Source of the DNA: Halorhodospira halophila SL1
GTDB taxonomy: Bacteria > Pseudomonadota > Gammaproteobacteria > Nitrococcales > Halorhodospiraceae
Direction: 5' to 3'
Assembly (NCBI RefSeq): GCF_000015585.1
Contig: NC_008789.1
Span: 2,070,001-2,102,000, forward strand
DNA length: 32,000 nt
Below, in pieces: positions 1,440 to 23,453 of the stretch. The translations under genes and the position numbers were made by a program. The notes under the pieces were generated by a model that was given only the letters and a program-made list of their open reading frames with translations, made no database searches and was not told where the DNA came from. Numbering within the stretch: position 1 is the stretch's first letter; the number at the start of each line of letters is the position of its first letter.

Positions 1440-2741
1440 CTAGTAGGAGTACGACGTCGCCAGGAACAGGGTTGCGGTGGTGCTGGTCAGGTCCTGGGCA
1501 CCGACGTTGGGGTCGTCGATAATGTAGGCCTCACCGGTGCCGTAGCTGCCGGTCACGCCCACGGAGACGGACGTGTTCTGGGTAAACCGGGTCAGGCTCA
1601 GGGAGCCACCGAATCGATCAACGCTATGGTCAAAGCCGTCGTAGGCGACCTCGTCGACATTGGAGAAGTCCGTGAACCCGCCAAGCCGGATGGCCCAGTC
1701 TGCCGTTAGGTAGTACTCGGCACCGGCCGCGAAATTGGTGACCGGCTCTCGTCCCCCGAAGCCGCTGGAGTGGATCACATCGGCGGCGAGGAGCAGACGC
1801 TGCGTCGCGAACCAGGCAGCGCCGACGCGGGTCTCGACCGGGTACGCCTCGCGCACGCTATCCTCAGTACGATCCTGGAAGGTCACGCTGCCGGATTGGC
1901 AGAAGTGATCGGCCTCGTACGCCTCAACATCGGCCCCGTGGCAGAGCGTCTGGGTGGAGTTGGTCGCATCGAAGATCTCCGTACCCCGGACGCTGACCCC
2001 AATCGCCACGCGCTCCAGCGGGGTGAACATCGCTCCCACCAGCCAACTCACTCCAACCTGCTCGCTGGTGACGTACTGGTTCTGCACCTCGTAGTCCCGG
2101 GCACTAGTGGCTTCGTCCTCGAGCAGGAGCACCTGGGTGGTAATGGTCTGCCGCTCGTGCTGGTGGAGATGAAGGGACGCGCCCAGTGAAAGCCGATCGT
2201 TCACCTCAAAGGCGATGGACGGCCCCAAGCGGTTGATGGTGTCTTCATTGTCCACATTGATGGAAAACGCCTGCACCGCATCGCGTTCGATGGCATCCGC
2301 ATCGAAGGTCTGAGCCTGCTCCTCACGAACGGACTGCGGGACGACGACAGAAAAGCCCACCGTGACGGGGCCTAGGGGCTGGGTGGTACCGAAGAAGTTG
2401 GGCAGGAACTCATCGGAGTTCCGTTCCCAGTCCGAGCCCTCGCCAAGCGTATCGGCATAGCGATTGCTGGTGATGTGGAACGCGTTGACGCTCGCCGAAA
2501 GGTTCGGGGCGTGGCCGTAGACGATGCCGGCGGGGTTGTAGTAGAGACCGGAGGGATCGTCCGAGATCCCCGCCGCCGCGCCGCCCATCCCCATGGGCCG
2601 GTCGCCGACATGCATGCCGACATTATTGGAGCGGCTCATGGCGCTTGCCTCGGTGGCGATCCCGACCATCGCCACGACAGCGACGGCGGATTGCACGACG
2701 CGGCTGCTGCACCCGCTCCGCCCGGCGAAGAGTCGACTCAT
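1440..2741 (-). CDS. Outer-membrane beta-barrel, FadL/TodX (OMPP1) family-like
   Basis: 433 aa with an N-terminal signal peptide (..VAMVGIATEASA). Has the FadL-type N-terminal motif GGAAAGISDDPSGLYYNPAGI. The body shows alternating beta-strand character, and the C-terminus ..FLATSYSY ends in an aromatic residue as OM barrels do. Its start overlaps the stop of the upstream M48 gene (ATGA at 2738-2741). Confidence 0.75.
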   Translation of the reverse strand: MSRLFAGRSGCSSRVVQSAVAVVAMVGIATEASAMSRSNNVGMHVGDRPMGMGGAAAGISDDPSGLYYNPAGIVYGHAPNLSASVNAFHITSNRYADTLGEGSDWERNSDEFLPNFFGTTQPLGPVTVGFSVVVPQSVREEQAQTFDADAIERDAVQAFSINVDNEDTINRLGPSIAFEVNDRLSLGASLHLHQHERQTITTQVLLLEDEATSARDYEVQNQYVTSEQVGVSWLVGAMFTPLERVAIGVSVRGTEIFDATNSTQTLCHGADVEAYEADHFCQSGSVTFQDRTEDSVREAYPVETRVGAAWFATQRLLLAADVIHSSGFGGREPVTNFAAGAEYYLTADWAIRLGGFTDFSNVDEVAYDGFDHSVDRFGGSLSLTRFTQNTSVSVGVTGSYGTGEAYIIDDPNVGAQDLTSTTATLFLATSYSY

Positions 2742-3685
2742 TGCATGTTCTCCTGGAATCGGTCGCCCATGCGCGGTCGCTCCGCGTCAGCCAGCCCCAT
2801 CTCCACCATGAAGCCCTCCAGTGCTTGAAGCCGTTCATCCAGCGGCGGATGGGTATCGGAGACACCGTCTTCCACGGTCTCGCCGCCCGAGTGGTCACGG
2901 AGCCGCTCGAGGTACCGACGAAGCCCCTCGGGGTCGTAGCCCGACTGAGCCGCCAGCAACGTGCCCATTCGATCCGCCTCCAACTCGTCCTCCTTGCTCA
3001 GCCCCTCTTCCAGGAGAATCTCCAGCGCCTGATCCACCGCCTGCGCAAAGGCGGCGCGGGCCGGGTCCCCGGAACCCCCGACGATGCGTGCGAGGCCGGA
3101 GGCGATCCCCCCTTCACCGCTCGTGATATCCAGTTCCTTAACGATATGCCGTTCGGTGACGTGGATGATCTCGTGGGCCAGCACCCCGGCCAGCTCCGAT
3201 TCGTCCTCCATGAGTTCAAGGGCGCCCCGGGAGACGAAGATGTAGCCGCCCGGCGTGGCAAACGCCTTCACCGCGTCGGTGTCGAGGACCGCAAACCGGA
3301 AGTCGATCTCCGGGCGGTTGGCATTGCGGACCAGGGAGTGGCCCACCAAAGCCACGTAGCGATCCCGACGGTCGGCCTGGTCGAGCTGGTGGCGCCCCAG
3401 CAGATGGGCTGCCACCTCGCGCCCGAAGTCGATCTCGACAGCCACGTCCTCAGCATCGAAATCGAACTGGCGGACCTGGCCCAGGCGTTGGCGTGCCTGC
3501 CGCGGATTGAAGTCGACGGCCTGGACCCCACCGGCGTCGCCGGCCCCGGTGTGGCCCGTGCCGTTGACGCCGCCCTGCGCCCCACCGACTGGCACCGGCG
3601 AGAACACGCTGAACCACAGGGCGCAGATCAGAAGCGCTGCGGCGCTGAATCCCAGTGGCCGTCCCGGCTTCGTTCGCATCCTCAT
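2738..3685 (-). CDS. Secreted M48-family zinc metallopeptidase
   Basis: 315 aa with a signal peptide. Zinc motif HEIIH within GVLAHEIIHVTERH, plus the downstream M48 signature EDELEADRMG. GGYIFVSRGAL is typical of BepA/YfgC-like M48 proteases. ATGA overlaps at both ends (3682-3685 and 2738-2741). Confidence 0.9.
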   Translation of the reverse strand: MRMRTKPGRPLGFSAAALLICALWFSVFSPVPVGGAQGGVNGTGHTGAGDAGGVQAVDFNPRQARQRLGQVRQFDFDAEDVAVEIDFGREVAAHLLGRHQLDQADRRDRYVALVGHSLVRNANRPEIDFRFAVLDTDAVKAFATPGGYIFVSRGALELMEDESELAGVLAHEIIHVTERHIVKELDITSGEGGIASGLARIVGGSGDPARAAFAQAVDQALEILLEEGLSKEDELEADRMGTLLAAQSGYDPEGLRRYLERLRDHSGGETVEDGVSDTHPPLDERLQALEGFMVEMGLADAERPRMGDRFQENMQ

Positions 3686-4164
3686 CGCAACGCCTCCCGA
3701 AAGGCGCGGAGTTCGTCTTCATCCACCGCCTGCTCTTCCAGTTCGGCCAGCGCCCGATAGTCCGCCATGTCGCGGTCACTCAGGCGCTCGCGCTGCTCCG
3801 GGGTCAGGCCACGGGCCGCAGCGGCACTGGCCACCTCCGACGAGCGGCGGCGTGAGTCGTCGATATCCGGCGCCTCACCATCGAGGATGCTGTCCCGCTC
3901 CATAGGCGGCTGCGTGGCAACCACCAGGCGCGACACCCAGCCCTCTTCCCCGTCGTGACGCACCCGATACCACACCCCCTCGGAGGCCAGCTGTTCCAGT
4001 TCCGTGCCGCGGGGGACCCGCCTCACCACCTCGGCATCCAGGCTTGCCTCGGCGTAGACCTCGCCCTGCTCACTCTGGACGAAGAGCAAATCCTCCCCCG
4101 ACGCCGCGGAAGCGAGGACCAGACCGAGCGGGAGGATCAGCCAGTGCCACTGTGATCGCCTCAT
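3682..4164 (-). CDS. Secreted bacterial SH3 (SH3b) domain protein
   Basis: 160 aa with signal peptide MRRSQWHWLILPLGLVLASAASG. SH3b-like segment: VYAEASLDAEVVRRVPRGTELEQLASEGVWYRVRHDGEEGWVSRLVV. ATGA overlap with the cyclase stop (4161-4164). Confidence 0.75.
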   Translation of the reverse strand: MRRSQWHWLILPLGLVLASAASGEDLLFVQSEQGEVYAEASLDAEVVRRVPRGTELEQLASEGVWYRVRHDGEEGWVSRLVVATQPPMERDSILDGEAPDIDDSRRRSSEVASAAAARGLTPEQRERLSDRDMADYRALAELEEQAVDEDELRAFREALR

Positions 4165-6098
4165 GCTCCCTCCGGTGGCGCGATGGGTTCATAGAGATCA
4201 AGCATGCGCTGCCGCCCCCGGACCTGGACCCGATCCACGTACCGGCACTGCCACCCCTGCGGCAGATCCGCGTAGGTATCGCCGCTGATCAGCACCGAGC
4301 AGCCGTAGGCCTTGGTCAGGTCTTCCAGGCGGGAGGCGACGTTCACGTTGTCGCCGATCACCGTGTAGTCCAGCTTGCGGACCGAGCCGATATTGCCGAG
4401 CACGACCTCACCGGTATGGAGGCCGATGCCGATCGCAAGCGGTTTACCACCGCGGGCGACCACGGCCTCGTTGACTCCTTCCAGGCGCTGCGTCATGGCC
4501 AGTGCCGCGCGTACCGCCCGGTCCGCGTGATCGCGGACCCGGACCGGCGCCCCCCAGAAGGCCATGACCGCGTCGCCGATGAACTTATCGAGGGTCCCAT
4601 CGTGCTCGAAGATGGCCTCGCTCATCTCCCCGAGGTGGATGTTCAGCAACTCCACGACCGACGCCGCCTCCTGCCCCTCCGACAGGCTCGTAAACCCCCG
4701 GATATCGGAGAAGAGCAGCGTCACCTGCTCGGTGCTGCCCACCTCTCCGGTGGCGACTTCACCGCGGCGATCGACCACCTCCTGAAGGACTGCCGGTGAG
4801 ACGTACTGCGCCAGCAGCTGCCGGACCCGGCGACGATCGCGCCCTTCCGTGAAGCCGAGAAAGACGAGCACGGTGACCCAGGCCAGGAGCACGCCGACCA
4901 CGAGCGGCAGCCACGACCAGACGATCCCGGCCGCATGCTGAACGAGGACCCAGGCCGTCCACGCCGCCACCACGGCCAGCGGCAGGAGTACACGAGCGCT
5001 CAGTGCCGGCACCAGCAGGACAGCCAGGCCGACTGCCCCGGCCGCCGCAGGCACCAATACCGCCTCGATGGTGCCGGGGCCGAACCGCAGCGTCTGGCCA
5101 TCCAGGAGATTGCCGATCAGAGAGGCGTGCAGCTCCACGCCGGGAGTGCGCCCCGACAAGGGGGTCGCCTTGAGGTCGTGGAGGGCTGCGGCGCTGGCCC
5201 CGACGAAGACGATCCGGTCGTTGAAGACCTCGGGGTCCACCCGCAGGTCCGCCAGCTCACCGCGGCGGATCTGGCGTTGCGCCTCGAAGAGCTCGACAAC
5301 GGGGTAGCTATCGAACTCCGCGTACGGATTGACCAGGGCCTGGCCCGACGCGTCGGTAGCCAGCGTCTGATCTGCCCACTGCACCCCCTGCTCGTCCCAA
5401 TCGATGGTGGACGAATCCTGCCCCGCTGCGAGCAGCGCCGCGACACCGAGCGCCGGGTAGATTTCGCCGTCGTAGGGCAGCAGTGGAGGGAGGCGGCGGT
5501 GCACTCCGTCGCGATCCGGTCCCGTTGTCACCACCCCGAGCTGCTCGGCCTTGTCGGCCAGGGGTGCCACCGGTACGCCGTGCTCCTGAAAGCGCGGATC
5601 CGGCCACCCTTGGGTGTCCCCCAGCGCGTAGCGATCGGCCATTCCCTTCGGCAAGGGGTCTGCAGACCGGTCCTCCCGCGGATTGGCCTCCAAGAACTGC
5701 ATGGCGTGAACCACGCCTCCCAGCGCCGCGCTTGCCTGGGCGAAGGCGGCATCCCCGGCCCCCCCATCCTCCCGGGCCGACTCGGTGAAGAGAACGTCGA
5801 AGACCACCGCCGCCGGGCGCCCATGCGCGAGGAATTCCAGGAGGTCCGCCCAGAGCGAGCGGGGCCAGGGCCAGCGCCCCACCGCCGGCTCCATGGCGCG
5901 GATGCTGTACTCGTCCACATAGAGGATAACGATCTCCTCCGGGGCGTGCGCATCCCCGTGCAACCACTGTGTCCGCTGGTCGTAGACGACCCGCTCAACG
6001 GGAACCAGCCAGCCGACGGTATGGAGCACACCGGCGACGGTGGCCGCCAGGACCACCAGTCCGACACCGACCGCCCGACGCCGCGCCGGCTGAGCCAC
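4161..6098 (-). CDS. CHASE2 sensor domain - class III adenylate/guanylate cyclase
   Basis: 645 aa. N-terminal TM, then a ~300-aa extracytoplasmic region (CHASE2-like), then 3 TM helices. C-terminal cyclase catalytic motifs are LLFSDIRGFTSLSE, FIGDAVMAFWGAP, GLHTGEVVLGNIGS and DYTVIGDNVNVASRLE. Confidence 0.9.
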   Translation of the reverse strand: MAQPARRRAVGVGLVVLAATVAGVLHTVGWLVPVERVVYDQRTQWLHGDAHAPEEIVILYVDEYSIRAMEPAVGRWPWPRSLWADLLEFLAHGRPAAVVFDVLFTESAREDGGAGDAAFAQASAALGGVVHAMQFLEANPREDRSADPLPKGMADRYALGDTQGWPDPRFQEHGVPVAPLADKAEQLGVVTTGPDRDGVHRRLPPLLPYDGEIYPALGVAALLAAGQDSSTIDWDEQGVQWADQTLATDASGQALVNPYAEFDSYPVVELFEAQRQIRRGELADLRVDPEVFNDRIVFVGASAAALHDLKATPLSGRTPGVELHASLIGNLLDGQTLRFGPGTIEAVLVPAAAGAVGLAVLLVPALSARVLLPLAVVAAWTAWVLVQHAAGIVWSWLPLVVGVLLAWVTVLVFLGFTEGRDRRRVRQLLAQYVSPAVLQEVVDRRGEVATGEVGSTEQVTLLFSDIRGFTSLSEGQEAASVVELLNIHLGEMSEAIFEHDGTLDKFIGDAVMAFWGAPVRVRDHADRAVRAALAMTQRLEGVNEAVVARGGKPLAIGIGLHTGEVVLGNIGSVRKLDYTVIGDNVNVASRLEDLTKAYGCSVLISGDTYADLPQGWQCRYVDRVQVRGRQRMLDLYEPIAPPEGA

Positions 6099-6122: not shown

Positions 6123-6779
6123 TTACTCGTCTTCGCCTTCCTCTTCCTCGTCGCCGTCTTCATCCGATTCGAAATCGAGGCCGTCGTCCATGTCTCCCTC
6201 GTCGCCGCCTTCGTCTTCGGCATCGACGTCTTCTTCAGCGGCCTCGTCGTCCACCTCGGAATCGTCCTGCCAGTCTTCTTCGTCGACCTCTTCTTCCTCT
6301 TCGACCAGCAGGGCCCGCTTATCCGCAACGGCGTCGCGGAGCGCGTGGAGTTCGTCCTCATCGGCAAAGACCGCCACGCCGCCAACGCCCGCGTTCTTCA
6401 CCCACGGGTGGAGCCCACCGACACCACCGAGCGCGAACCAGCCCCAACCGGTCGTGCAAATCGGCTGGCGGCCCCCTTCATCGCCACCCAGCCAGCGGAC
6501 ATTGATGACGGCGTTACCGCCGACCTGCCGCGCCTCTTCCCGCAGCTCATCCGCCGCTTCCGAGGTGAGATCCCCGCACGACTCCCACACGAAGCCGTTG
6601 GCCCGCGCCTGGACACCCCCGATCTCCACGAACTGGATGTTCCCGGCCGTCTCCCCGGAGTACATCTCCCGCTCGTCGTAGTTGACGAAGCTCGTGCTCG
6701 TCGAGCACCCACTGATGAACCCTACTGTCAGTGCCGCTGCACTGGCCATTAACCACCGAGATTGGTACATGAGTTTCAC
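6123..6779 (-). CDS. Lipoprotein with a 60-residue poly-Asp/Glu C-terminal tail (N-terminal domain possibly YbjQ/UPF0145-like)
   Basis: 218 aa with lipobox LTVGFISGC. Segment EEARQVGGNAVINVRW resembles the YbjQ-family GANAV motif (tentative). In aa 159-218 about 40 of 60 residues are D/E. Confidence 0.75.
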   Translation of the reverse strand: MKLMYQSRWLMASAAALTVGFISGCSTSTSFVNYDEREMYSGETAGNIQFVEIGGVQARANGFVWESCGDLTSEAADELREEARQVGGNAVINVRWLGGDEGGRQPICTTGWGWFALGGVGGLHPWVKNAGVGGVAVFADEDELHALRDAVADKRALLVEEEEEVDEEDWQDDSEVDDEAAEEDVDAEDEGGDEGDMDDGLDFESDEDGDEEEEGEDE

Positions 6780-6838: not shown

Positions 6839-9040
6839 TTACCGCGACTCACCGCAAGCCCCGTGGGAATCCGGGGCCTCTCCATCGAACGCCTCGAAAA
6901 CGAGGATTTCGAAGTCATCCGCGTCCTCATTCGATTCTTCTTCCAGCGCTGCAAGCGCCTCGTCCCGCGTCTGCTCGACATCCCAGGATTCGGTATCCCC
7001 CTCGTAACTAAGGTCGAACACCCAGCCGCGGGGGGTCAGGCCGTCGAAATCAGCGGCATTGCTACGCTCCCATCCCGAACCGTTTTCTTCCTTATCGTGG
7101 GCAAAGTTGAATCGGTCTTCATCATCCAGCTCGAACTCTTCGCCAAGGAATACGTCGCGCCAGTCACCTGAGTCCAGACTTCCATTACCATTCTCTCCTC
7201 GCCACTCACCCTCGTGCCAGGAGTCCTCATCCCAGTAGCGATCCGACAGCTTTGACCAGAATTCGCTGCGCTTGAGCTCTTCGCTATCATTAAACTTCGG
7301 AGAACCTGACCACTCTCTGTCGTCGTCGGTTTTTTTCCAAAATGTCTCGTTATAGAACTGCGAGAGCGTGTAATCGTTCGAGCTGCTACGCACTCGCAGA
7401 TGCATCGTCTCTTCCACGCCGGCGAAGTTGACATTCAGGAGCAGGGCGCGGTCTGATGCGCGCTCCCATGTGCCGGTCATGCGCAGTGCCACGCTGTCCT
7501 CGCCGGCCTCGCCGCCCCCACCCTTGATCTCTTCTTCCTGCTCCGAATCAAGATCGAGGTCGAAGCTCTCAAATGTTCCGTCGAGACAGACGGTAAGCGC
7601 ACCTTCGTCGGAGTAACCTTTGTGCTCATCACCCTTGTAAAACCCGGGGTCCGCATAATCATCCGAGGGAAAATCAGATGCAGGCTCAAAGAAGAAGCGG
7701 ATCCTGCCGGTATCTTCCCCGGCGTCCCCGCCCGTTACCTCAAGTGCGAGCTTGGTCTTGCTGATTTCCGGGAGGACGGCCTTTACTGTGCTTTGAGTGA
7801 TCAGTTCAGCCCAGCCGTCCTCACTGTCGTCAAGTCCTCCGTTATCCCTTTTCCCCCGGATGGAGTCACTGAGCTGGCGGATATCGACTTGTTCGCCGAC
7901 CCCCGCCCTGGAAAGCCCGTCAAGGATTTTTTGGTAATCACCGTTCTTCGAACTACCGCTTCCAGTCGCACTTACTTCACTAGGACTATCGCTGGAGCGC
8001 GCATCTTCGCGAGCAACGGCAGCGGCCACCTCGCCCGCACGGGCTTTGCTCTTTACGTCGTTTTCTGACGCGCCCCCAATGGCGCTTCCGGAGGGGGGTG
8101 GCTTCAGGCCTCTTAGGGCTTCGTTGATTTCCGCCACGTCGTCACTGGAGAACCCATCAGTGCCAAAATTATCATCGATTGATGATATAGACTCCTTGAA
8201 ACCACCAAGGATATCTTCTATAGCACTTTTATCTAGAGAAAAATCAACGCCACCCGGATCACTCCCGTCAAGATCGGGTTTACCCAGTTTTTCACGAATC
8301 AGCCGGTAGAGCTCCATTGAGAGATCGAGCCCAAGAGCATCCTCGACTCTCTCGCGATCGACTCCCTGTTCATCGAGCCAACCATCCAAACCGGCAGCCA
8401 ACACGTCAACCGTCTTATGCAGAGCCAGGGCTTCAAAGAGCGCTTTCTTGTCGGCGTCCTTCGCACTCTCCCAAGCCCAGCCATTACTGCCATCGGCGTC
8501 TCCCCAAAAATCGACGCCGAAATCACCGACCGGATCGCCTTTTCGGTTGGCAACGGACGTCAGCGGATTCACGACAAGATCCGCCGGGTTCCGGATCTCA
8601 TGGATCGAATCGAGCCGGTAGCTCATGCTGCCCTCGAAGGGCTCCCCGGTGAGGACGTCGTACCCCCCCACCATCCTCAGCGTTCCGCCTTCGTGCGCGT
8701 CGGAGACACGAAGACAGTAGCGCTCGTTGTAGTGGTCGCCGTAGGGGTCGCAATAGTCGCGAGCGGGAATCGTATCGCCGTTAATATCTAATTCCGGGCG
8801 ATAGGAGAAGAAGCCGTAACGATCCGTCCGCGCGACCGGATCCCAGGAATTGATCTGGCCATTGTCCTGGAGATCGACCCAGACCCGGGCGCCGGCCACA
8901 TAGCCGTCGACCACGGTTCCGCTGAGTTGAACGTTGCTGCCACCGCCGCTGTCGCCATCACTGGCGTCGTCACAGGCAGAGAGTACGAGGGCGCCTGAAG
9001 CCACAAGGGCGAGCGCGCTAAACTTCGGAAAATACCACAT
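6839..9040 (-). CDS. Large (733 aa) highly acidic lipoprotein, function unknown
   Basis: Signal peptide plus lipobox MWYFPKFSALALVASGALVLSACDD. Long continuous ORF, very D/E/W-rich. N-terminal SGTVVDGYVAGARVWVDLQDNGQI suggests a beta-sandwich. G+C is visibly lower than in neighbouring genes. Confidence 0.8.
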   Translation of the reverse strand: MWYFPKFSALALVASGALVLSACDDASDGDSGGGSNVQLSGTVVDGYVAGARVWVDLQDNGQINSWDPVARTDRYGFFSYRPELDINGDTIPARDYCDPYGDHYNERYCLRVSDAHEGGTLRMVGGYDVLTGEPFEGSMSYRLDSIHEIRNPADLVVNPLTSVANRKGDPVGDFGVDFWGDADGSNGWAWESAKDADKKALFEALALHKTVDVLAAGLDGWLDEQGVDRERVEDALGLDLSMELYRLIREKLGKPDLDGSDPGGVDFSLDKSAIEDILGGFKESISSIDDNFGTDGFSSDDVAEINEALRGLKPPPSGSAIGGASENDVKSKARAGEVAAAVAREDARSSDSPSEVSATGSGSSKNGDYQKILDGLSRAGVGEQVDIRQLSDSIRGKRDNGGLDDSEDGWAELITQSTVKAVLPEISKTKLALEVTGGDAGEDTGRIRFFFEPASDFPSDDYADPGFYKGDEHKGYSDEGALTVCLDGTFESFDLDLDSEQEEEIKGGGGEAGEDSVALRMTGTWERASDRALLLNVNFAGVEETMHLRVRSSSNDYTLSQFYNETFWKKTDDDREWSGSPKFNDSEELKRSEFWSKLSDRYWDEDSWHEGEWRGENGNGSLDSGDWRDVFLGEEFELDDEDRFNFAHDKEENGSGWERSNAADFDGLTPRGWVFDLSYEGDTESWDVEQTRDEALAALEEESNEDADDFEILVFEAFDGEAPDSHGACGESR

Positions 9041-9078: not shown

Positions 9079-10467
9079 TCAGAAGCGCAATTGAAAGCCC
9101 AGGTGTGCCATCGCGCTACGCGGGATCGATTCGCCGTCGTGTTCCAGGTCCTGATCCGCGACGGCCACGTCCAGGGTCACCGCACCCAGCCAGGTCAGGC
9201 CGGCAGTGGTGTAGCTCAGCTCCGAACCGCTCATATTCTCCCGGTAGCCCACGCGGAGATCGGGAACCCACTTCAGATACCACGGCATGCGGTAGGAGAG
9301 GCTGAACGCCAGCCACTGGTACTCATCGCCGCTGATATCCCGAACGGTATTCGCATCGTAACTGGCGGCCAGGACGAGCCGCTGGGCGGGATCGTGGAGA
9401 GCGCCTTCCAGAGTCACCTGCTCGTTGAGACGAAACGCCTCCTCGCGCGTAATCCGGTCTGAGAAATTGGCCGCCGTGAGGCAGTTGGCCTGGAGATCCG
9501 GGTCCGCTTCCCCGGAGCAATCGGTACCAACTGCCGGAAAGTCGAAGGTGGGTTCATTGATGTTCTTCCAGGCGCCGCCGGCACGGAAGAAACGGGTCTG
9601 GTACATAACACCCAGGTCGAGGCCAACCGCGCTGGAGGTCTCCTGCTGGCGGTCGATCTCATCCTCGACGATATCCCCGAAATCCCGGTTCGTATCCTCG
9701 GCAAGGGCGACCACCGCCTTGGAGAGTTCCGCCTGGTAATGGCTGACCCGAGCACCGACGAACAGCTCGCGCCCTCCCTCCCACTCTGCAACGCGCAGGC
9801 TCGGGGCTGCAGAGAGCCGGAGGATACCGCCGCCTTTCAGGTATGCCGCGGTATTGCTCTGGATTTGCTCGGTCTCGCGGACAAACCGCAACTCGTCATC
9901 GAGTATGCTGAACCCGAGGTGGCCCGTGGCTTCAGCGTCCAGAGCCACCGACCACCCGGAGCGGGCACTGCCAACAACCAGCGGGGCAAGCGGCGGACGG
10001 CCACCAAACTGGAGCTTCCCCCAACCGTCCTGCCCCAGCTGAGCGAGGACGCCCTCGGTACGTTCAATCAGGTCATCCGCCTCGCTCGGGCCCAGATCAT
10101 CCCGGTCAAGGATGTCGATGATGTCGTCGATTTCATCGACCAGCCCATCAACCGGCCCGAGTTCATAGCCCACGCCTACGCTGCCAAGCCCAAACTGGAC
10201 ACCGACCCGATCCGCTGCTGCCGCCCCTGCGGGGTTACCCGCAACCGTGTGCAGCGTCGCTGGGTGGGAGCCGTCGCCGAGGCCCATGCCGGGCGTCGTG
10301 ACCAATCCGGGCGCAGCGGAAACACTGGACGACACCGCCATGGTTAGCGCTGTAACGACACCGAGCGAGCACTGTTGGAGCCGGCGCGGAGTACCCCGCC
10401 CGGGGCGATCTGCGCAACTGGCCGCAGAGGACCGACTTCGGGCCCCCCGCTCTATTTGCATCGACAT
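9079..10467 (-). CDS. Outer-membrane beta-barrel protein (distant FadL/TraF-like, NPAG motif)
   Basis: 462 aa. Signal-like region ..GVVTALTMAVSSSVSAAPG followed by an AGNPAG motif. C-terminus HLGFQLRF ends in Phe, as OM barrels do. The exact start codon is uncertain (long basic N-region). Confidence 0.75.
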   Translation of the reverse strand: MSMQIERGARSRSSAASCADRPGRGTPRRLQQCSLGVVTALTMAVSSSVSAAPGLVTTPGMGLGDGSHPATLHTVAGNPAGAAAADRVGVQFGLGSVGVGYELGPVDGLVDEIDDIIDILDRDDLGPSEADDLIERTEGVLAQLGQDGWGKLQFGGRPPLAPLVVGSARSGWSVALDAEATGHLGFSILDDELRFVRETEQIQSNTAAYLKGGGILRLSAAPSLRVAEWEGGRELFVGARVSHYQAELSKAVVALAEDTNRDFGDIVEDEIDRQQETSSAVGLDLGVMYQTRFFRAGGAWKNINEPTFDFPAVGTDCSGEADPDLQANCLTAANFSDRITREEAFRLNEQVTLEGALHDPAQRLVLAASYDANTVRDISGDEYQWLAFSLSYRMPWYLKWVPDLRVGYRENMSGSELSYTTAGLTWLGAVTLDVAVADQDLEHDGESIPRSAMAHLGFQLRF

Positions 10468-10867
10468 GGAACATTGCCCCCCAGGAACGCTGAGACGTTA
10501 TTGCAACCGGTGTTGCAGGTCTGAGATGAGCGTACCCCAAAGGCCTCTCGCCAAGTAAGGCTTCACGTGGTGGGAGTCCAGATCGATGGACAGGTGCACG
10601 CTATAACCTCAGCTTCTTCCGAAGTCCCTCCAGTGGGTTAGCCCTAAGGGCGGGATGCACGAGCACCCAGCCCGCGACAACGAACCGCATCACACCCTGG
10701 GGACACGGGACACACCGATGGGTATTCGGTTACCCCCAACGCGATAGATTCCAGGCTCAGCGCCTTGCCGGAGCCGCGGCGATAGCCCCCCCCTGACGGC
10801 AGCGTGCTACTTTCCGTAACATAACGAGCGCGCTGCACGCGCAGGCGCCATCTGGAGGGAATCCCCG

Positions 10868-11059
10868 TTGCGTTATGGACCCGGACCTGCCGCCGGCAGC
10901 GTGGCGCTGTTCTTGTTGGTGCTCTTCCTGCTGGCCACGCCGTTCACCGACTGGTGGATGGAGGCCCGGCCGCCGTGGTACGTCCCGTACCTCGGCTGGG
11001 CGGTGGTGATCGCATTGGGTGGCTGGTTGATCGAACGGGGAACCGGGCGTGACCTTTGA
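10868..11059 (+). CDS. Small 2-TM membrane protein preceding the SSS-kinase (CbrX-like position)
   Basis: TTG start in the ORF track; an in-frame GTG at 10901 is an alternative. Two hydrophobic helices (ALFLLVLFLLATPF and WAVVIALGGWLI). Its stop (11057-11059) overlaps the kinase GTG start at 11049 by 11 nt. A similar ORF precedes the second SSS-kinase. Confidence 0.45.
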   Translation: MRYGPGPAAGSVALFLLVLFLLATPFTDWWMEARPPWYVPYLGWAVVIALGGWLIERGTGRDL

Positions 11060-15549: not shown

Positions 15550-17487
<1,938 letters not shown>

Positions 17488-17496
17488 ACGGGGTAC

Positions 17497-17524
17497 GGAC
17501 GAGGCCGGGAGACCGGCCTCGTCC
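17497..17524 (+). terminator. Stem-loop immediately downstream of acs
   Basis: GGACGAGGCCGG-gaga-CCGGCCTCGTCC is a perfect 12-bp GC-rich stem, 10 nt after the acs stop. There is no clean U-tract (the following sequence is cccggatgtgcgtttcc). Confidence 0.6.
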
Positions 17525-17623
17525 CCCGGATGTGCGTTTCCGCATCGCGTGTTTGAGGGTTCAGGGTTCGGTCGATGGGCATTCGACCCCCTGTGTACGG
17601 ATCACCGACAACCAGAGAGCCTC

Positions 17624-17818
17624 ATGTCACCCTGGATCTATTTCCTCGTCACATTGGCGATTGCCTGGCACGGGCTGACCTACAAGGACCCGGAAGGCGA
17701 TCACCCGACGGTGCACCTGCTTTTCGGCTGCATCGCGCTGATCTTCGCGATGCGCTTTCTCTTCGTGGACATCCTGGGGCTGCCGATCCTCGGCGTCGCA
17801 CCGCTGGACGCGGGCTGA
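17624..17818 (+). CDS. Possible small (64 aa) 2-TM membrane protein
   Basis: Internal ATG of listed ORF 17549..17818. MSPWIYFLVTLAIAWHGL..HLLFGCIALIFAMRFLFVDILGLPILG is hydrophobic. The RBS is weak and there is no recognisable family. Confidence 0.35.
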   Translation: MSPWIYFLVTLAIAWHGLTYKDPEGDHPTVHLLFGCIALIFAMRFLFVDILGLPILGVAPLDAG

Positions 17819-17881
17819 GCTGAGCTCCGGGGGCCACGGACCATCCCACAGGCCGCTTGTCTGCCCTTGCAATGAGGGTAA

Positions 17882-17899
17882 GCGGGGTGAACACCCCGC
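17882..17899. terminator. Short GC hairpin between convergent genes
   Basis: GCGGGGT-gaac-ACCCCGC is a 7-bp stem. It lies 64 nt after the stop of the + small ORF and 49 nt after the stop of the - TPR gene. Confidence 0.3.
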
Positions 17900-17947
17900 C
17901 CGGCGGGATCCGCAGCGGTCAAGACCGCACCAAGACGACGCCCTCGC

Positions 17948-18547
17948 CTAATCGGGGCGCTGGGTGTAGGCCCTCTGCTGGCTGTCTTTTTCCGGGTCGG
18001 AGAGCTTACGCTCATCTTCCGGCAGCGCCAGCTGCTCCTCGAGGTAGTCAGCGCGTTCCGAGATGCTCGGCTGGCCGTCCGGTCCCATGTGGAAGAAGCG
18101 GGTCAACCACCCCGGGCCGTCATCCACCGCCTCGTCCAGTTCCGCCGCCTTACGGTAGTCCGCAAGCGCCTGCTCGTGTTCACCGAGCCGGTCGTAGGCG
18201 ATCCCGCGGTTGGCGTAGGCGCCGGCGAACTCCGGATCGATCAGTTCGATGAACCGGTCGTACACGTGGATGGCGCGTTCCAGCTCGCCTAGCTCAAGCA
18301 GCGTCGTGGCCTTGCCCAGGTGAGCGTAACGGTGCTCCGGCGCCTCCTCCAGCGCCCGGGTGTACTGCTCCAGGGCGCGATCGTAGCGCCGATCCTGGAG
18401 GGCGCGATCGCCGGCGATGGTCTTGACATCGCCCGGCCCCCGATCCGGTGCCACCCCCTGATACAGGGCGTAGCCCAGCGGCAGGAGCGCCGCCACGATG
18501 GCGATGGCCACCCAGGTCCGGTACCCCCGCTCGGTAATCTTGATCAT
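17948..18547 (-). CDS. Membrane-anchored TPR-repeat protein
   Basis: 199 aa with an N-terminal TM (WVAIAIVAALLPLGYALY). TPR-like repeats: YDRALEQYTRALEEAPEH.., AIHVYDRFIELIDPEFAGAYANRGIAYDRLGEHEQALADYRKAAELD. ATGA overlap with the upstream small gene (18544-18547). Confidence 0.8.
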   Translation of the reverse strand: MIKITERGYRTWVAIAIVAALLPLGYALYQGVAPDRGPGDVKTIAGDRALQDRRYDRALEQYTRALEEAPEHRYAHLGKATTLLELGELERAIHVYDRFIELIDPEFAGAYANRGIAYDRLGEHEQALADYRKAAELDEAVDDGPGWLTRFFHMGPDGQPSISERADYLEEQLALPEDERKLSDPEKDSQQRAYTQRPD

Positions 18548-18780
18548 TGCAACACACCTAACGTTGCCGAATTCAGGAAGAAAGAGAACACCGGCAGGAT
18601 GACGGTGGCCAGCACACGGGCCCGCCGTTTCTGCCCGGCCAGTTCCTCTTCAGACAACTCCCGGTCCAGTTTCCGCTGCAGCCGCCGCACGCTCAACACC
18701 CAGATCCACTGACTGACCGGATAGAAGAGAATGACGACCAGCAGAACGACCCAGAACAGGAATTGGGTTGTGGGATCCAT
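18544..18780 (-). CDS. Small (78 aa) 2-TM membrane protein
   Basis: MDPTTQFLFWVVLLVVILFYPVSQWIWVLSV, then a charged linker, then VLATVILPVFSFFL. Translationally coupled to the TPR gene and sits downstream of the symporter. Confidence 0.6.
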   Translation of the reverse strand: MDPTTQFLFWVVLLVVILFYPVSQWIWVLSVRRLQRKLDRELSEEELAGQKRRARVLATVILPVFSFFLNSATLGVLQ

Positions 18781-18815
18781 ATCGCTCGCTCGAATGAAAC
18801 CGCTTGAAGGGAGGG

Positions 18816-18844
18816 GCGCAGGGGGCCGGAACGACCCCCTGCGC
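18816..18844 (-). terminator. Intercistronic stem-loop between the symporter and the small membrane gene
   Basis: GCGCAGGGGG-ccggaacga-CCCCCTGCGC is a perfect 10-bp stem, 35 nt downstream of the symporter stop (18879). No U-tract, so it could be a partial terminator or an RNA processing/stability element. Confidence 0.35.
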
Positions 18845-18878
18845 TACCCGGTTGCAGTGGTCGATGACCACCGACCCG

Positions 18879-21170
18879 TTACGGACGGCTCACGTCGTAG
18901 CGGGCCTTGCCCTGATCCTCGTCGAAGAGGACCTCGATTTCCTTCTCGGGCACGGTGCTCATCTCACACTTGTAGCAGGTGAACCACATCATGTAGATAC
19001 CGATCACCCACCACAGCAGCTGCCAGACCACGATGGACGGCAGGCCGAGGAACCACCAGGTATCGGGGTTGGTCGGATCACCGAAGACCCAGTTGCCCAG
19101 CAGGGCGCCCGGACCGAAGGCGAAGATCCACCAGCCGATGACGATGGTGAAGGCGATCGGGATCAGGTGGCGCTTCTCGGCCGGCAGTGACGCATGCTCG
19201 CGAAGGAAGGCGTGCACCGTCATGCGGTGATCGTAGTCTTCCTTGTTGTTCTGCGTCATCGCCGAGACGACCACGGCCACCAGGGCGTTAAGCACCAGGC
19301 CCCACCCGGCAGAGTGGATGGTCAGCGGCCAACGGCCCCAGGGCACGTCGACGCCCGCCGCCGCCAGCAGGTCGATGCCGATGTTCTCGGTCATCAGCAC
19401 GGCAACGATGCCAACGCCCAGCCCCCAGACCACACCCGGACGGGTAAGCCAGGGGAAGAAGCAGATGGCGGCCAGCGGCACCCACATCTGCGTACCCATG
19501 GCGGTGGCCAGACCGCCGAGCAGCACCAGGGCGTCGGTGGTCACCGTCGCCACGGTCAGGGCCGCAAGCACCAGGATGGTGACGAAGACCCGGCCCGCCA
19601 CCACCTGGGCCTGGTTGCTGGCACTGGGCATGATGTAGCGACGCAGCAGGTCACGGGTAAACATGCCACTGGTGGTGGACATGTACGCCGCGCCGGTGGA
19701 CTGCATGGCCGCCAGGGCACAGACCGCCAGCAGGGCCGCCAGCCACGGCGCCGCCGCCTCCAGCATGTTCAGCAGCTGGGGCACAAGCTCGCTGTCACCG
19801 CCCCGATCCAGGGACAGGTCCAGCCAGGCCCGCTCGAGATCGCCCGGCAGAGCTGCCAGCCAGTCCGGATCCATGTTGCGCGGATCCTCACCGATGGACA
19901 GCGCCGCCAGACCGGCCGCGATGACCTGCTCGACCTCCTGACGACTGAGTTCCGGATGCTCGGCCTGGATCATGCCGCGCTGCATGACCGCGGTGGGTAC
20001 CAGCGGGCTGAGATCCATGCCGTCCAGGGACTCGCCGGCGTCCAGGCGCTCGCGCACCTCGTCCACCAGCCCTTGGTGCTCCTCGGAGGCCTCGAACAGC
20101 GTCCGGTACTCGGCCAGCTGCTCACCGTGCTCGTCGGAGAAGATGTCCTTGGCGAACTCGGTGTTGGCCCCCAGGCCGTGGGTGGCCATCGCCTGGATCG
20201 CCAGGAAGGTGAACATCAGGGCACCGACGCCCACCGGGGACATCCAGGTCTGTTGCGGCGCAAACGGACGCGGGTTCTGGTTCGAGAACGCCCACATGGT
20301 GAACGACGGGGAGGCCATGATGCCGCCCAGCGCCAGCATGTAGGTGATGTTCATGACGCCGGTCCAGACACCGCCCTGGGCGTTGGCCGCGGCACCGACC
20401 CACTGGATGGCACCCGGGATGGCGACATAGCCACTGGCACCGCTATCCCCCGGCACCATGCCCGGCGAGACCTCACCCGCACCACCGGTGGCGGTCTCCC
20501 ACTCGACCAGGCCGGCAATCACGTGCGTGAAGTTGTTCCAGCCGCCGATGTAGTAGAGCGTCACGACGCCGATGACGAAGATGCCCACAATGAGCAAAAC
20601 AGCCTGCGCCGCGTCCACGTACGCCACGGCGCGCAGACCGCCCGAGGCCACGTAGAACAGCACCACCGCGGACAGCAGCCACATGCCGATCTCGACGCCC
20701 ATCCAGCCGTCGGTGAGCACGTGGAACAGGAAGCCCGAGGCGCGCAGCTGAATCCCCAGGTACGGCACTGCGAAGATCAGCGCCACAATGAGGATCAGGA
20801 TGCGGATCGAGTCCGTCCGGAAGTAGTCCGCGAACATCTCGCCCGGCGTGACGTAACCCCAACGCTTGCCAATCATCCATTGGCGCTTGAGGAACAGCAT
20901 GCCGGTGAACGGGATGCAGATGGAGTAGAACGAGGCGTAGGCGTACTGCAGGCCGTCCTCGTAGATCAGGCCCGGGTGTCCTACGAACGTCCACCCTGAG
21001 AACGATGTGGCCGTTGCCGCCAGTATGAAGACCCACATACTGACGGAGCGCCCGGCCACGAAGTAGTCGCTGGCTGTGCGCGACCAAAGGTATCCCTTGA
21101 TACCCCAGAAGATGCAGTAGCCCCAGTACAGGCCTACAAACACCAACAGCCATATGGCCATAGCTGACAT
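18879..21170 (-). CDS. Sodium:solute symporter (SSS) family transporter, atypically long (763 aa); likely monocarboxylate/acetate permease by context
   Basis: SSS-type N-terminus (YFVAGRSVSMWVFILAATATSFSGWTFVGHPG; GGLRAVAYVDAAQA) and a late SSS helix (ALAAMQSTGAAYMSTTSG). Has a ~140-aa hydrophilic acidic insertion (aa ~335-474) and a ~120-aa C-terminal extension with 2 extra TM helices. RBS GAGGGGGAG lies upstream. The substrate is inferred only from the acs/sigma54 context. Confidence 0.9.
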   Translation of the reverse strand: MSAMAIWLLVFVGLYWGYCIFWGIKGYLWSRTASDYFVAGRSVSMWVFILAATATSFSGWTFVGHPGLIYEDGLQYAYASFYSICIPFTGMLFLKRQWMIGKRWGYVTPGEMFADYFRTDSIRILILIVALIFAVPYLGIQLRASGFLFHVLTDGWMGVEIGMWLLSAVVLFYVASGGLRAVAYVDAAQAVLLIVGIFVIGVVTLYYIGGWNNFTHVIAGLVEWETATGGAGEVSPGMVPGDSGASGYVAIPGAIQWVGAAANAQGGVWTGVMNITYMLALGGIMASPSFTMWAFSNQNPRPFAPQQTWMSPVGVGALMFTFLAIQAMATHGLGANTEFAKDIFSDEHGEQLAEYRTLFEASEEHQGLVDEVRERLDAGESLDGMDLSPLVPTAVMQRGMIQAEHPELSRQEVEQVIAAGLAALSIGEDPRNMDPDWLAALPGDLERAWLDLSLDRGGDSELVPQLLNMLEAAAPWLAALLAVCALAAMQSTGAAYMSTTSGMFTRDLLRRYIMPSASNQAQVVAGRVFVTILVLAALTVATVTTDALVLLGGLATAMGTQMWVPLAAICFFPWLTRPGVVWGLGVGIVAVLMTENIGIDLLAAAGVDVPWGRWPLTIHSAGWGLVLNALVAVVVSAMTQNNKEDYDHRMTVHAFLREHASLPAEKRHLIPIAFTIVIGWWIFAFGPGALLGNWVFGDPTNPDTWWFLGLPSIVVWQLLWWVIGIYMMWFTCYKCEMSTVPEKEIEVLFDEDQGKARYDVSRP

Positions 21171-21240
21171 TCGTGTCTCCCCCTCACATTTCTTGAGTTA
21201 TGAGGTGTTGCAATCCCCCCGCAGGGGTCGGCGGTCTCTA

Positions 21241-21256
21241 GCGAAAACCGTGCCAC
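21241..21256 (-). promoter_or_regulatory. Sigma54 (-24/-12) promoter for the symporter operon
   Basis: The minus strand reads TGGCACGGTTTTCGCT, i.e. TGGCAC-N5-TCGC, with GG and GC at canonical spacing (consensus TGGCACG-N4-TTGCW). The -12 GC lies ~70 nt upstream of ATG 21170. An NtrC-type activator is encoded in the window. Confidence 0.7.
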
Positions 21257-21317
21257 CCGCCCCAGAGCGCTTAACCCACTGATGGGCCTTGGCCCCGCAG
21301 CACGACCATGCGTCCAC

Positions 21318-21372
21318 GCGTTACCTTCGGTAACAAGCCACGTTCCCAGGGGTAACACCAGTGGGTAACACC
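21318..21372. promoter_or_regulatory. Upstream activator-site cluster in the divergent intergenic region (TGTTACC-type motifs)
   Basis: Palindrome GTTACC-ttc-GGTAAC at 21320-21334. A 10-nt direct repeat GGGTAACACC sits at 21350-21359 and 21363-21372. The cluster lies 64-116 nt upstream of the -24 GG of the minus-strand sigma54 promoter. Confidence 0.55.
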
Positions 21373-21447
21373 CGCGCAGCGGTTTGTCTCTGCCGCCGGG
21401 GTTGGGCATGATCAAAGCGAGCAGACCCCCGCACAGGAGAAGCGCCG

Positions 21448-23370
21448 ATGGCCGCCGGAGCGAACAGCCCCGGGGAGCAAAACCCGTCCGCCGACACGCT
21501 GGACGTCGGTCGCCTGGCCGAGAACGAGGTCTTCCGCAACCTTGATGAACAGTTACTGCGCGCACTGCTGGCGCGTGGCAGGGTTCATCACCTGGAAAGC
21601 GGCGACGTGCTCTTCCACCTCGGCGACCCGGACCGCGACACCCTCTATATTCTCTACGAGGGGCGGGTCGAGCTGCGCGACGCCCACAACGTGGTCACCG
21701 TCCGCGAGCCGGTGACCCTGCTCGGGCTGTCGAGCTACTTCGACGACGAGCCCTACACCCTCACCGCCCGGGCCACCCGGCCGTCGCTGGTGGTCGGCAT
21801 CCCCTTCGAGGATGTGCGCACCCTCGAGCGCGAACACCCGCCCCTGGCCGACGCCTTGAGCCGCATTATCGCCGACCGGATCCGCGCCAACTCCTGGCAG
21901 CATCGCGGCAGCCCCACCGGTGCCCTGTCGCAGCCGGCGCGCACCGCCATGTCCACGCCGCTGACCTACCAGCAGCCGGACTGCAGCCTGGGCGAAGCCT
22001 TCCGCTTCATGGACGAACGCAAGATCGGCAGCATCGGCGTGCTCGACGAGGCCGGCGGTCTGGTCGGCCTGGCCACGCTGCGCACCATCGGTCGCGCCAT
22101 CTTCACCCGGGGGCTGACCCCCGAAGCCTCCATCGTCGAGGCCGCCGAGCGGATCACCGCCATCGGCCCCGAGACGCCGCTATCCGAGGCCAAGGACATC
22201 CAGGCGCGGGAGAACGTCAAGTACCTGGTGGTCATGGACGGCACACGGCCGGTGGGCATGCTCTCGCAGTCGAACATGCTCCAGGCGATCATGGCCCAGC
22301 AGACCGTCATGCGCGAGCGCATCAACCGGGCCACCAGCATGTCGGAGCTGCAGCAACTCGCCGGCGAGGTGGGTTACGTGGCGCGCGAAGCCTGGAACAA
22401 CAACCGCGAGGCCAGCCGCGCCACCTATCTACTGAGCGAATTCCACCTGCAGCTCCAGCGCCGCTGCATCGACCTGGTGGTGGATGAACTCCGCAGCGAA
22501 GGCTGGGGCGAGGCGCCGCGTCCCTACGCCCTGCTGATCCTCGGTTCGCTGGCGCGCCGCGAGGCGCTGATCAACCCGGACCAGGACAACGCCATGATCA
22601 TCGGCGACTGTCCCCGGGGCGGCGACGACCCCCGCCCCCTGGACGAAACCGAGGCGGAGTGGTTCGCCACCTTCGCCGAGCGAGTGAACATCCGCCTCGA
22701 CGAGCTCGGCTACGAGTGGTGCAAGGGCGATATCATGGCCCGCAACCCGGAGTACCGTCACCCGCTGGAGCGCTGGCGGCAACAGTTCCGCTACATGGCC
22801 CGGCACCCGAACAGCACCTCGGCGCGCTGGTGCAACATCTTCCTCGACTTCGAGCTGCTCTACGGCGAACAGGGCCTGGTGACCGAGCTCTGGGACTTCG
22901 TCCTGGCCACCCTCAAGGAACAGCCCAAGCTATTGCGCTTTATGACCGGTGATGACGCCGAGGGCCAGCCGGCGGTGGGGCTGTTCAACCGGCTGATCCG
23001 CTCGCGCCGCGGCGACAATGGCAACGGCTGCGTGGACATCAAGCGCAAGGGGCTGCGCATCATCGCCAACGGGGCGCGCATCTATGCCCTTTCGGCCAGT
23101 GTGCGCGAAACCAACACCGTGGCCCGGCTCAAGGGCCTTCGCCGCGAGGGCGTGCTGACCAGCGAGATGGTCGACTCGGTCCTCACCGGCCACGAAGAGC
23201 TGCTCGATCTGCTGCTGACCCACCAGATCGAACAGCATCAGGCGGGCACCGCTCCGGACAAGTACATCGACCCCGAGGAGCTGGACGACCTGACCCGCCA
23301 GTCCCTGGCGACGAGCATGAAAGCGGTCAAGCGCTTCCAGGACCGCGTACAAGGCGTCTTCGGCCTTTAG
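21448..23370 (+). CDS. cNMP-binding + tandem CBS + DUF294-type putative nucleotidyltransferase (with DUF294_C-like substrate-binding domain)
   Basis: 640 aa. Cyclic-nucleotide-binding-like N-domain (VFRNLDEQLLRALLARGRVHHLESGDVLFHLGDP..LYILYEGRVEL). Two CBS motifs (..KIGSIGVLDEAGGLVGLATLRTI.. and ..VKYLVVMDGTRPVGMLSQSNML). Pol-beta-type NTase signature LGSLARREALINPDQDNAMII (GS at 22543-22548, DQD at 22579-22587). Confidence 0.9.
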   Translation: MAAGANSPGEQNPSADTLDVGRLAENEVFRNLDEQLLRALLARGRVHHLESGDVLFHLGDPDRDTLYILYEGRVELRDAHNVVTVREPVTLLGLSSYFDDEPYTLTARATRPSLVVGIPFEDVRTLEREHPPLADALSRIIADRIRANSWQHRGSPTGALSQPARTAMSTPLTYQQPDCSLGEAFRFMDERKIGSIGVLDEAGGLVGLATLRTIGRAIFTRGLTPEASIVEAAERITAIGPETPLSEAKDIQARENVKYLVVMDGTRPVGMLSQSNMLQAIMAQQTVMRERINRATSMSELQQLAGEVGYVAREAWNNNREASRATYLLSEFHLQLQRRCIDLVVDELRSEGWGEAPRPYALLILGSLARREALINPDQDNAMIIGDCPRGGDDPRPLDETEAEWFATFAERVNIRLDELGYEWCKGDIMARNPEYRHPLERWRQQFRYMARHPNSTSARWCNIFLDFELLYGEQGLVTELWDFVLATLKEQPKLLRFMTGDDAEGQPAVGLFNRLIRSRRGDNGNGCVDIKRKGLRIIANGARIYALSASVRETNTVARLKGLRREGVLTSEMVDSVLTGHEELLDLLLTHQIEQHQAGTAPDKYIDPEELDDLTRQSLATSMKAVKRFQDRVQGVFGL

Positions 23371-23453
23371 AATAAGGGCGTGCGCCGCCGACGCCAGGCG
23401 TGTCGACGGCGACCGAGATCCGGCCCAATAACCGAGAGGAGGCGGCCACGAAG

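Follow-up and report, generated by a model that had tools for sequence, protein, structure and literature searches.

A predicted CHASE2 adenylate cyclase of Halorhodospira halophila shares a widely conserved gene cassette with a secreted M48 protease, an SH3b protein and a FadL-family barrel

We analyzed a 32,000-nt stretch of the Halorhodospira halophila SL1 genome (NC_008789.1, positions 2,070,001 to 2,102,000; hereafter the window), in which four consecutive genes on the minus strand encode a CHASE2 receptor adenylate cyclase and three exported proteins. In window coordinates these are the cyclase itself (4161-6098; 645 aa from a GTG start; CHASE2 and Guanylate_cyc domains), a secreted SH3b protein that we refer to as SH3x (3682-4164; 160 aa, ATG start; SH3_3 domain), a secreted minimal M48 zinc metalloprotease, M48x (2738-3685; 315 aa, ATG start; Peptidase_M48), and a FadL/TodX-family outer-membrane barrel, FadLx (1440-2741; 433 aa, ATG start; Toluene_X). 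All features of these four genes given below likewise lie on the minus strand. Our analysis showed that this cassette is found in many bacterial phyla, and we propose, with moderate confidence, that a protease-gated periplasmic accessory module controls the CHASE2 adenylate cyclase.

A first-pass annotation of this stretch had assigned the four identities and described three start/stop overlaps that link the genes. Both points were borne out: each protein has a Pfam match above cutoff, and the list of open reading frames (ORFs) together with the junction sequences places ATGA overlaps at 4161-4164 (cyclase stop and SH3x start), 3682-3685 (SH3x stop and M48x start) and 2738-2741 (M48x stop and FadLx start). 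A GGAGG-like Shine-Dalgarno site is present 4-9 nt 5' of each internal start, within the preceding gene, and a terminator check of the locus identified no credible terminator between the four genes. Judged from the sequence, the cyclase, SH3x, M48x and FadLx are a tight, translationally coupled operon. As four-base start/stop overlaps are ordinary in operons, however, the ATGA overlaps indicate a tight operon rather than the “obligate” co-translation of the first-pass annotation, which was an overstatement; the window has another four-base overlap at 28954-28957. Export signal peptides were found on SH3x, M48x and FadLx, and all three proteins are therefore expected to act outside the cytoplasm.

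The same annotation had staked its proposal on the gene order being conserved outside this genome, and this is what we found. The same four-gene order, with unrelated flanks, was recovered in all seven neighborhood look-ups, namely those of Natronospira proteinivora, Oceanospirillum multiglobuliferum, H. halochloris and four contigs from metagenomes or metagenome-assembled genomes. M48x was adjacent to the cyclase and on the same strand in 16 of 80 species-representative CHASE2-cyclase loci, which are spread over about ten phyla (Nitrospirota, Desulfobacterota, Margulisiibacteriota, Elusimicrobiota, Balneolota, Gemmatimonadota and Bdellovibrionota, as well as Gamma- and Betaproteobacteria); one further locus, L006, has a non-adjacent M48 gene 2 kb away and was left out of this count. 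For a reverse test, metagenomes were searched with the M48x alignment and the neighbors were scored in testable loci. A CHASE2 cyclase was found beside M48x in 46 of 54 of these loci, SH3x in 47 of 59, and FadLx in 24 of 49. The constant pair is the cyclase and M48x, while SH3x is a usual member and the barrel an optional one, and a comparison of neighbors found no conserved gene that replaces FadLx after M48x in the cassettes that lack the barrel.

The cassette also occurs in several variants. The order SH3x-M48x-cyclase was seen at three loci (L039, L055 and L074), and cassettes reduced to the cyclase and M48x were seen in Gemmatimonadota and at loci L120 and L144. In two Fodinibius species, SH3x and M48x are truly fused into a single polypeptide (L012 5960-7273; L016 12012-13391) that keeps an ...AAAVKGF... 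segment between the two domains. A 569-aa SH3-M48 “fusion” at L155 was rejected as an ORF-extension artifact of high GC content. The cyclases of the four-gene cassette form one clade, plus a few separate lineages, and the cassette has apparently spread across phyla by horizontal transfer.

To place these results among other CHASE2 cyclases, we clustered the genes around the 80 loci by type. The other neighbors are FecR-domain proteins (24/80 loci), HD-GYP proteins (22/80), class II phosphodiesterase homologs (15/80), FHA proteins (11/80), proteins that bind cyclic nucleoside monophosphates (cNMPs; 10/80), TPR proteins (8/80) and PP2C (7/80). M48x and FecR-type neighbors never occur together (0/17 vs 24/63, Fisher p = 0.0019). 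This mutual exclusivity argues that SH3x and M48x would have the same role as the FecR-domain and TPR proteins that accompany other CHASE2 cyclases, and it sets the M48x group apart as a separate, undescribed class of partners. Two sets of the FecR type have been reported, a Campylobacterota cluster of a CHASE2 adenylate cyclase, a cyclic AMP (cAMP) phosphodiesterase, an outer-membrane protein with a FecR domain, and a TPR protein (PMC9239204), and a Burkholderia operon of a LysM-FecR protein and a CHASE2 histidine kinase (PMC5192318). The FecR, TPR and phosphodiesterase neighbors counted above are of the same kinds as those of the Campylobacterota cluster, to which the Burkholderia operon is related. 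As in those sets, a CHASE2 sensor is encoded here beside secreted protein- or cell-wall-binding accessory proteins and an outer-membrane component, but the partners in our cassette are an SH3b protein, an M48 enzyme with an intact active site and a FadL barrel, which adds proteolysis. Full-text searches of the literature turned up no account in which M48, SH3 or FadL genes accompany a CHASE2 cyclase. The concept of a CHASE2 cyclase served by accessory proteins or a barrel is known, while the set of SH3b, M48 and FadL partners, with its proteolytic step, appears to be new. Apart from this, the FHA-type loci (L043, L047, L049, L050, L051, L065, L067, L068, L070, L073 and L077), mostly from Burkholderiales and Acidobacteriota, carry an FHA-domain gene immediately 5' of the CHASE2 cyclase, often together with a PP2C phosphatase.

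The H. halophila cyclase matches CHASE2 (PF05226) with 176.6 bits (cutoff 26.3; E-value 8.9e-52; residues 21-348) and Guanylate_cyc with 103.9 bits (1e-29), and its AlphaFold2 (AF2) model has a mean predicted local distance difference test (pLDDT) score of 92. Like SH3x and M48x, it is 100% identical to a protein recorded for H. halophila. The start of the gene is uncertain: the public record gives 629 aa, and an alternative GTG at codon 15 would put the start perhaps near 6056. Hydropathy and AF2 secondary structure delimit a putative periplasmic CHASE2 domain at residues 35-341 (nt 5076-5996), between a first transmembrane (TM) segment at residues 7-34 and TM2-4 at residues 342-420 (nt 4839-5075; hydropathy segments 7-34 and 342-419; AF2 helices 4-28, 342-362, 366-389 and 397-430). 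This is the topology that defines CHASE2 proteins, with one TM helix before the domain and three after it, and the domain is predicted to be extracytoplasmic. In the family alignment, residues D40, D62, G74, P77, R80, D101, D116, D197 and R201 of the CHASE2 domain are universally conserved. No solved structure related to the domain emerged when CHASE2 alone was used as the query of a sequence search, and a fold search with the full cyclase model gave matches to the cyclase domain only, which leave the CHASE2 fold unclassified.

The class III catalytic domain (residues 455-632, nt 4203-4736) was aligned to Cya2 (2w01), 6fht and CyaB (3r5g). This alignment identified the metal-binding residues D465 and D509, the substrate-defining K505 and T579, and the transition-state residues N586 and R590, and all six are invariant in alignment A3, which holds 83 sequences. 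At the position of K505, the guanylate cyclase Cya2 has a Glu and its E-to-K variant 6fht has the engineered Lys, while T579 falls opposite the Gly of Cya2. We take this Lys/Thr signature to be that of a class IIIb adenylate cyclase. Because of the signature, the predicted product should be cAMP and not cyclic GMP (cGMP). The first-pass annotation had left the output as cAMP or cGMP and called for an alignment of the specificity residues; by K505 and T579, the first of the two is retained and the second is not.

M48x matches Peptidase_M48 with 103.4 bits (cutoff 20.3; 1.7e-29), and its nearest solved structures are 3c37 (1.6e-24) and BepA (3.5e-19). The HExxH zinc site (H171, E172 and H175; nt 3161-3175), the third zinc ligand E234 (nt 2984-2986) and an HPx4R active-site plug (H279, P280 and R285; nt 2831-2851) are all invariant in alignment A1 of 30 M48x sequences. 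The spacing of HExxH, Glu ligand and plug is 63 / 45 residues, compared with 65 / 45 in BepA (H136/E201/H246). HPx4R was defined as the autoinhibitory plug motif of the M48 family (PMC7950410), and in BepA the plug is regulatory and keeps the protease inhibited up to its docking at the outer membrane (PMC7950410, PMC13655028). By analogy with BepA, the plug implies that M48x would be a latent protease. M48x resembles BepA, YcaL and LoiP in its HExxH site, Glu ligand, HPx4R plug, predicted periplasmic location and link to an outer-membrane barrel, but it differs from BepA in having no TPR domain and from YcaL and LoiP in having no lipobox, and it tracks a cyclase gene. Its scores are 100.6 bits against a cutoff of 570 for the BepA model (NF052400), with no TPR hit, and 46.6 against 365 for LoiP, and alignment A1 has no conserved Cys after the signal peptide. 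M48x is therefore neither BepA nor LoiP, and its subfamily, with more than 1,600 database hits, is unnamed. Tandem M48x-M48x proteins are encoded within otherwise normal four-gene cassettes (P0132, P0139 and P0142; L168 7001-8533), and the second copy in P0139 lacks HExxH (AQQMVH). These tandem forms suggest that M48x may function as a dimer or alongside a partner domain that is inactive.

SH3x matches SH3_3 (PF08239) with 43.7 bits (cutoff 27; 3.1e-11). Its SH3b domain (residues 25-85, nt 3910-4092) is modeled by AF2 as a beta-barrel with a pLDDT of about 90, and by Foldseek it resembles the cell-wall-targeting SH3b domains found in NlpC/P60 enzymes and endolysins (4r0k, 3npf and 4krt). The C-terminal half is probably flexible (pLDDT 45-63), and it carries the tail motif RRRSSEVASAAAARGL (nt 3805-3852), with R105, R107, S109, A114-A117, R118, G119 and L120, which is invariant in alignment A4 as RRRxS-x4-AAAARGL. 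Among 49 members of the SH3x family, 47 have [RK]G[LF] and 25 have R-x-R-x-[ST], against 3.9 expected for the latter by shuffling. A tail that is conserved and yet low in predicted order is what would be expected of a substrate or docking segment. An exhaustive profile search found many relatives of SH3x, which match over their full length and have a uniform size of 155-170 aa. SH3x scored 27.6 bits against a cutoff of 65 for the YgiM-like SH3-and-anchor family TIGR04211, and hydropathy revealed no hydrophobic C-terminal segment, so that a membrane anchor of the TIGR04211 type is absent.

The match of FadLx to Toluene_X (PF03349; 58.1 bits against a cutoff of 29.7, 7.5e-16) covers profile positions 26-226 only. 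Its N-terminal motif G-M-G-G-A...D-D-P...Y-N-P-A-G is conserved, and we take this motif to be similar to the FadL hatch. A profile built from 21 members of the FadLx family matched FadL (2e-4, in the C-terminal part), 3dwo, TbuX and TodX, and the PDB entry for PorV with an E-value of only 0.23. FadLx itself scored 21.4 bits against a cutoff of 90 for PorV/PorQ (NF033709). FadLx thus shares Toluene_X membership and an NPAG-containing N-terminal motif with FadL, TodX and TbuX (and PorV), but it is far from the solved members (best 2e-4), and its gene is coupled to that of a protease rather than to catabolic genes. The presence of the barrel is correlated with Arg motifs in its two exported partners. 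In loci L086-L165, the R-x-R-x-S of the SH3x linker (R105-S109, nt 3838-3852) was found in 20/23 cassettes with FadLx vs 1/12 without it (Fisher p = 9e-6), and the [FW]R-x-R at the N-terminus of mature M48x (R65-R67, nt 3485-3493) in 17/24 vs 0/23 (Fisher p = 1.6e-7). This correlation, which is confounded by phylogeny, suggests that SH3x and M48x may both be docked at the barrel or have a binding site in common.

In the mechanism that we propose, M48x would stay latent, like BepA, for as long as no envelope cue releases the plug, and where FadLx is present the outer membrane or the barrel may be the source of this cue. Active M48x would then cut a periplasmic target, most likely the flexible, motif-bearing tail of the SH3x adaptor, while the CHASE2 ectodomain may itself be cut where SH3x is missing. 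Cutting would lift the inhibition of the cyclase by CHASE2, and cAMP would rise and be read by effectors such as those often encoded nearby in other genomes (cNMP-EAL proteins, GAF-HD-GYP proteins, cNMP-gated MscS channels and class II phosphodiesterases). The co-inheritance of the genes in a fixed order across many phyla, with FadLx in about half of the cassettes, favors this mechanism, as does the Fodinibius fusion, a physical link between SH3x and M48x; by sequence, all catalytic residues of both the cyclase and M48x are intact.

There is also a precedent in Sinorhizobium meliloti. Without its CHASE2 domain, S. meliloti CyaD1 produces cAMP constitutively, so that CHASE2 is inhibitory there (PMC5498481), and the outer-membrane barrel NsrA is required for sensing by CyaK, CyaD1 and CyaD2, the signal being a protease-sensitive protein (PMC7529298, PMC13001267). 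Both systems combine inner-membrane CHASE2 class III adenylate cyclases with an outer-membrane beta-barrel. However, NsrA is large, with its barrel in residues 600-1200, whereas FadLx is a 430-aa FadL-type barrel, and the S. meliloti system has no dedicated protease or SH3 protein. Apart from the S. meliloti case, the earlier remark that the ligand of CHASE2 is undefined still holds.

Several points weigh against a protease-gated module. The cleavage of SH3x or CHASE2 by M48x, and the contact of SH3x or M48x with CHASE2, are steps that we infer, and the co-transcription of the four genes in Halorhodospira is a prediction. A search for cyclase residues specific to the M48x clade gave three positions only, with no enrichment in the periplasmic domain. 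In 8 of 54 loci, no cyclase gene is adjacent to SH3x-M48x, and three of these loci also have FadLx, so that the trio may function in its own right. In addition, about 20% of cassettes lack SH3x and about 50% lack FadLx, and for this reason no single mechanism that depends on SH3x or FadLx can be universal. The three cyclase-less loci with a complete trio (L109 6824-9906, L110 and L132) have SH3x-M48x-FadLx directly after lspA, in an hslVU-UDG-hisS-lspA array.

These loci bear on a different reading, which we regard as possible but unlikely, namely that the cassette reports on the quality control of outer-membrane proteins. M48x would degrade stalled or misassembled barrels (FadLx or others) in the manner of BepA, YcaL and LoiP, with SH3x replacing TPR as the targeting module, and CHASE2 would sense the accumulation of unassembled proteins or their fragments and so convert stress in envelope assembly into cAMP. 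The trio beside lspA fits this reading, as do the translational coupling of the barrel gene to the M48x gene, the closeness of M48x to 3c37 and to the protease domain of BepA, and the cNMP-gated MscS channel that follows one set of cassettes. The characterized periplasmic M48 proteases of E. coli also all act on barrels engaged with the BAM machine for beta-barrel assembly (PMC7950410, PMC13655028). However, half of the cassettes have no barrel gene, M48x has neither a TPR domain nor another known BAM-docking element, and nothing ties CHASE2 to the sensing of outer-membrane-protein fragments. A housekeeping protease would also be unlikely to track one cyclase clade as closely as M48x does (46/54).

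The first-pass annotation had favored import, in which FadLx admits a hydrophobic solute or peptide that becomes the CHASE2 ligand, either directly or after trimming by M48x. We find this version distinctly unlikely. FadLx does belong to the FadL/TodX family and keeps the N-terminal NPAG motif, and CHASE2-cyclase signaling in S. meliloti likewise needs an outer-membrane barrel for a signal that is a protease-sensitive protein (PMC7529298). On the other hand, FadLx is present in only 24/49 testable cassettes, and no other gene takes its place after M48x in the rest, so that import through the barrel is not a general mechanism. FadL channels, moreover, release their substrates sideways into the membrane and not into the periplasm, and import would leave SH3x without a role. 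The broader notion of a trans-envelope relay fares better, as the S. meliloti system is a precedent for it; what does not stand is barrel import as its general mechanism.

It is more improbable still that control runs from the cyclase to the module, or that the genes merely share an operon for envelope homeostasis with no direct signal between them. The cyclase gene heads the cassette, some loci have the trio but no cyclase, and our cyclase comparison detected no interface residues, all of which would be compatible with such an arrangement. As cAMP is cytoplasmic, however, it cannot act directly on secreted proteins, and order and adjacency are kept across about ten phyla with unrelated flanks, while the lack of overlap with FecR-type partners argues for a specific functional pairing. 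Finally, a Pycsar-type cyclic-nucleotide anti-phage defense is effectively refuted, since the PADLOC models of PycC cyclases (best 4.8e-34) match the catalytic domain in no more than its generic class III fold, PADLOC gave no adjacent effector gene and no hits to the other six proteins, and a Pycsar system would be at odds with the purine-type Lys/Thr residues, the CHASE2 ectodomain and the secreted partners.

Other genomes encode putative effectors beside the cassette. At three loci (L081 5063-7874; L083 5528-7971; L084 5088-7646), the genes just upstream of the four cassette genes encode, between them, a pair of cNMP_binding-EAL proteins, a GAF-HD-GYP protein together with a class II phosphodiesterase, and a GAF-HD-GYP protein together with an HDOD protein. 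The EAL and GAF-HD-GYP neighbors suggest that cAMP may feed into the turnover of cyclic di-GMP. Cassettes of the cyclase and M48x only are followed by a gene for an MscS-type mechanosensitive channel that carries a cNMP-binding domain at its C-terminus (L120 3835-5085, L138 1969-3141, L144 9034-10467). This putative cNMP-gated channel is likely a direct effector of cAMP, and it hints at an osmotic or envelope-tension output.

In H. halophila, the genes that flank the cassette are on the minus strand as well. Upstream are a small acidic lipoprotein (6123-6779; 48% identity to H. halochloris), a 733-aa acidic lipoprotein (6839-9040; 39% identity), both with a lipobox, and a TraF_2 barrel (9079-10467; Pfam 1.7e-58; 54% identity); downstream is a further acidic lipoprotein with the lipobox LAGC (1-1395, cut by the window edge). 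The three lipoproteins contain 22-27% Asp+Glu, and the co-directional gaps in the flanks are 44, 24, 59 and 38 nt. The TraF_2 barrel and the two upstream lipoproteins also lie in synteny immediately upstream of the H. halochloris cassette (L166 3506-7770), while the downstream lipoprotein matches an H. halochloris protein only weakly (25% identity), and that protein is encoded at a non-adjacent site. No relatives of the flanking lipoproteins or of TraF_2 were found at any other locus examined, and the three upstream genes are therefore a genus-level addition rather than a part of the conserved unit. The first-pass annotation was right that the flanking genes are co-directional with short gaps, but as synteny is limited to the genus, we rejected its suggestion that they belong to the same unit. 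They may nonetheless be co-transcribed with the cassette from the 580-nt divergent region at 10468-11048. The region of the 733-aa lipoprotein (7001-9000) has a GC content of 0.56-0.58, against 0.64-0.70 around it, which could reflect either foreign origin or codon bias from a composition rich in Asp, Glu and Ser.

The remainder of the window, from 11 to 32 kb, carries unrelated two-component-system and acetate-utilization genes. The acetate-type cluster (15550-29937) includes an acetyl-CoA synthetase, an SSF permease, a cNMP_binding+CBS+DUF294 nucleotidyltransferase and a PAS+RNase_T exonuclease, together with a histidine kinase-SSF transporter fusion and an alpha/beta hydrolase gene that overlaps the kinase gene by 4 nt. 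The cNMP_binding+CBS+DUF294 protein is encoded 15 kb from the cyclase, and nothing ties the two together.

Relays from an outer-membrane component and periplasmic proteolysis to a cytoplasmic output exist in FecA-FecR-FecI and in DegS/RseP-RseA. Our cassette differs from these in its protease family and architecture, and its predicted output is a second messenger from a receptor cyclase rather than the release of a sigma factor. It is tempting to go further and consider CHASE2 as the receptor for a peptide made by the protease, although we hold this to be rather unlikely. M48x and SH3x would be docked on FadLx through their Arg-x-Arg motifs, M48x would cut the ...AAARGL tail of SH3x (or a captured foreign protein), and the basic peptide that is released or unmasked would be the physiological ligand. 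If true, this would bring the cassette together with the basic ribosomal-protein signal that Sinorhizobium senses through NsrA, and it would represent a new architecture, a proteolysis-gated trans-envelope relay that ends in a second messenger.

Defined in 2003, CHASE2 occurs across bacteria in fusions with cyclases, kinases and cyclic di-GMP enzymes, yet its input is known in one organism only, and indirectly. A protease and adaptor that track a large clade of CHASE2 cyclases provide a tractable hypothesis, namely that periplasmic proteolysis sets the activity of the cyclase, and the cassette is present in culturable hosts, including Pseudoalteromonas, Oceanospirillum, Natronospira and Halorhodospira. 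The protease-gated module would also give a signaling context to a minimal M48 subfamily and to an unannotated family of SH3 proteins with a uniform length of 160 aa.

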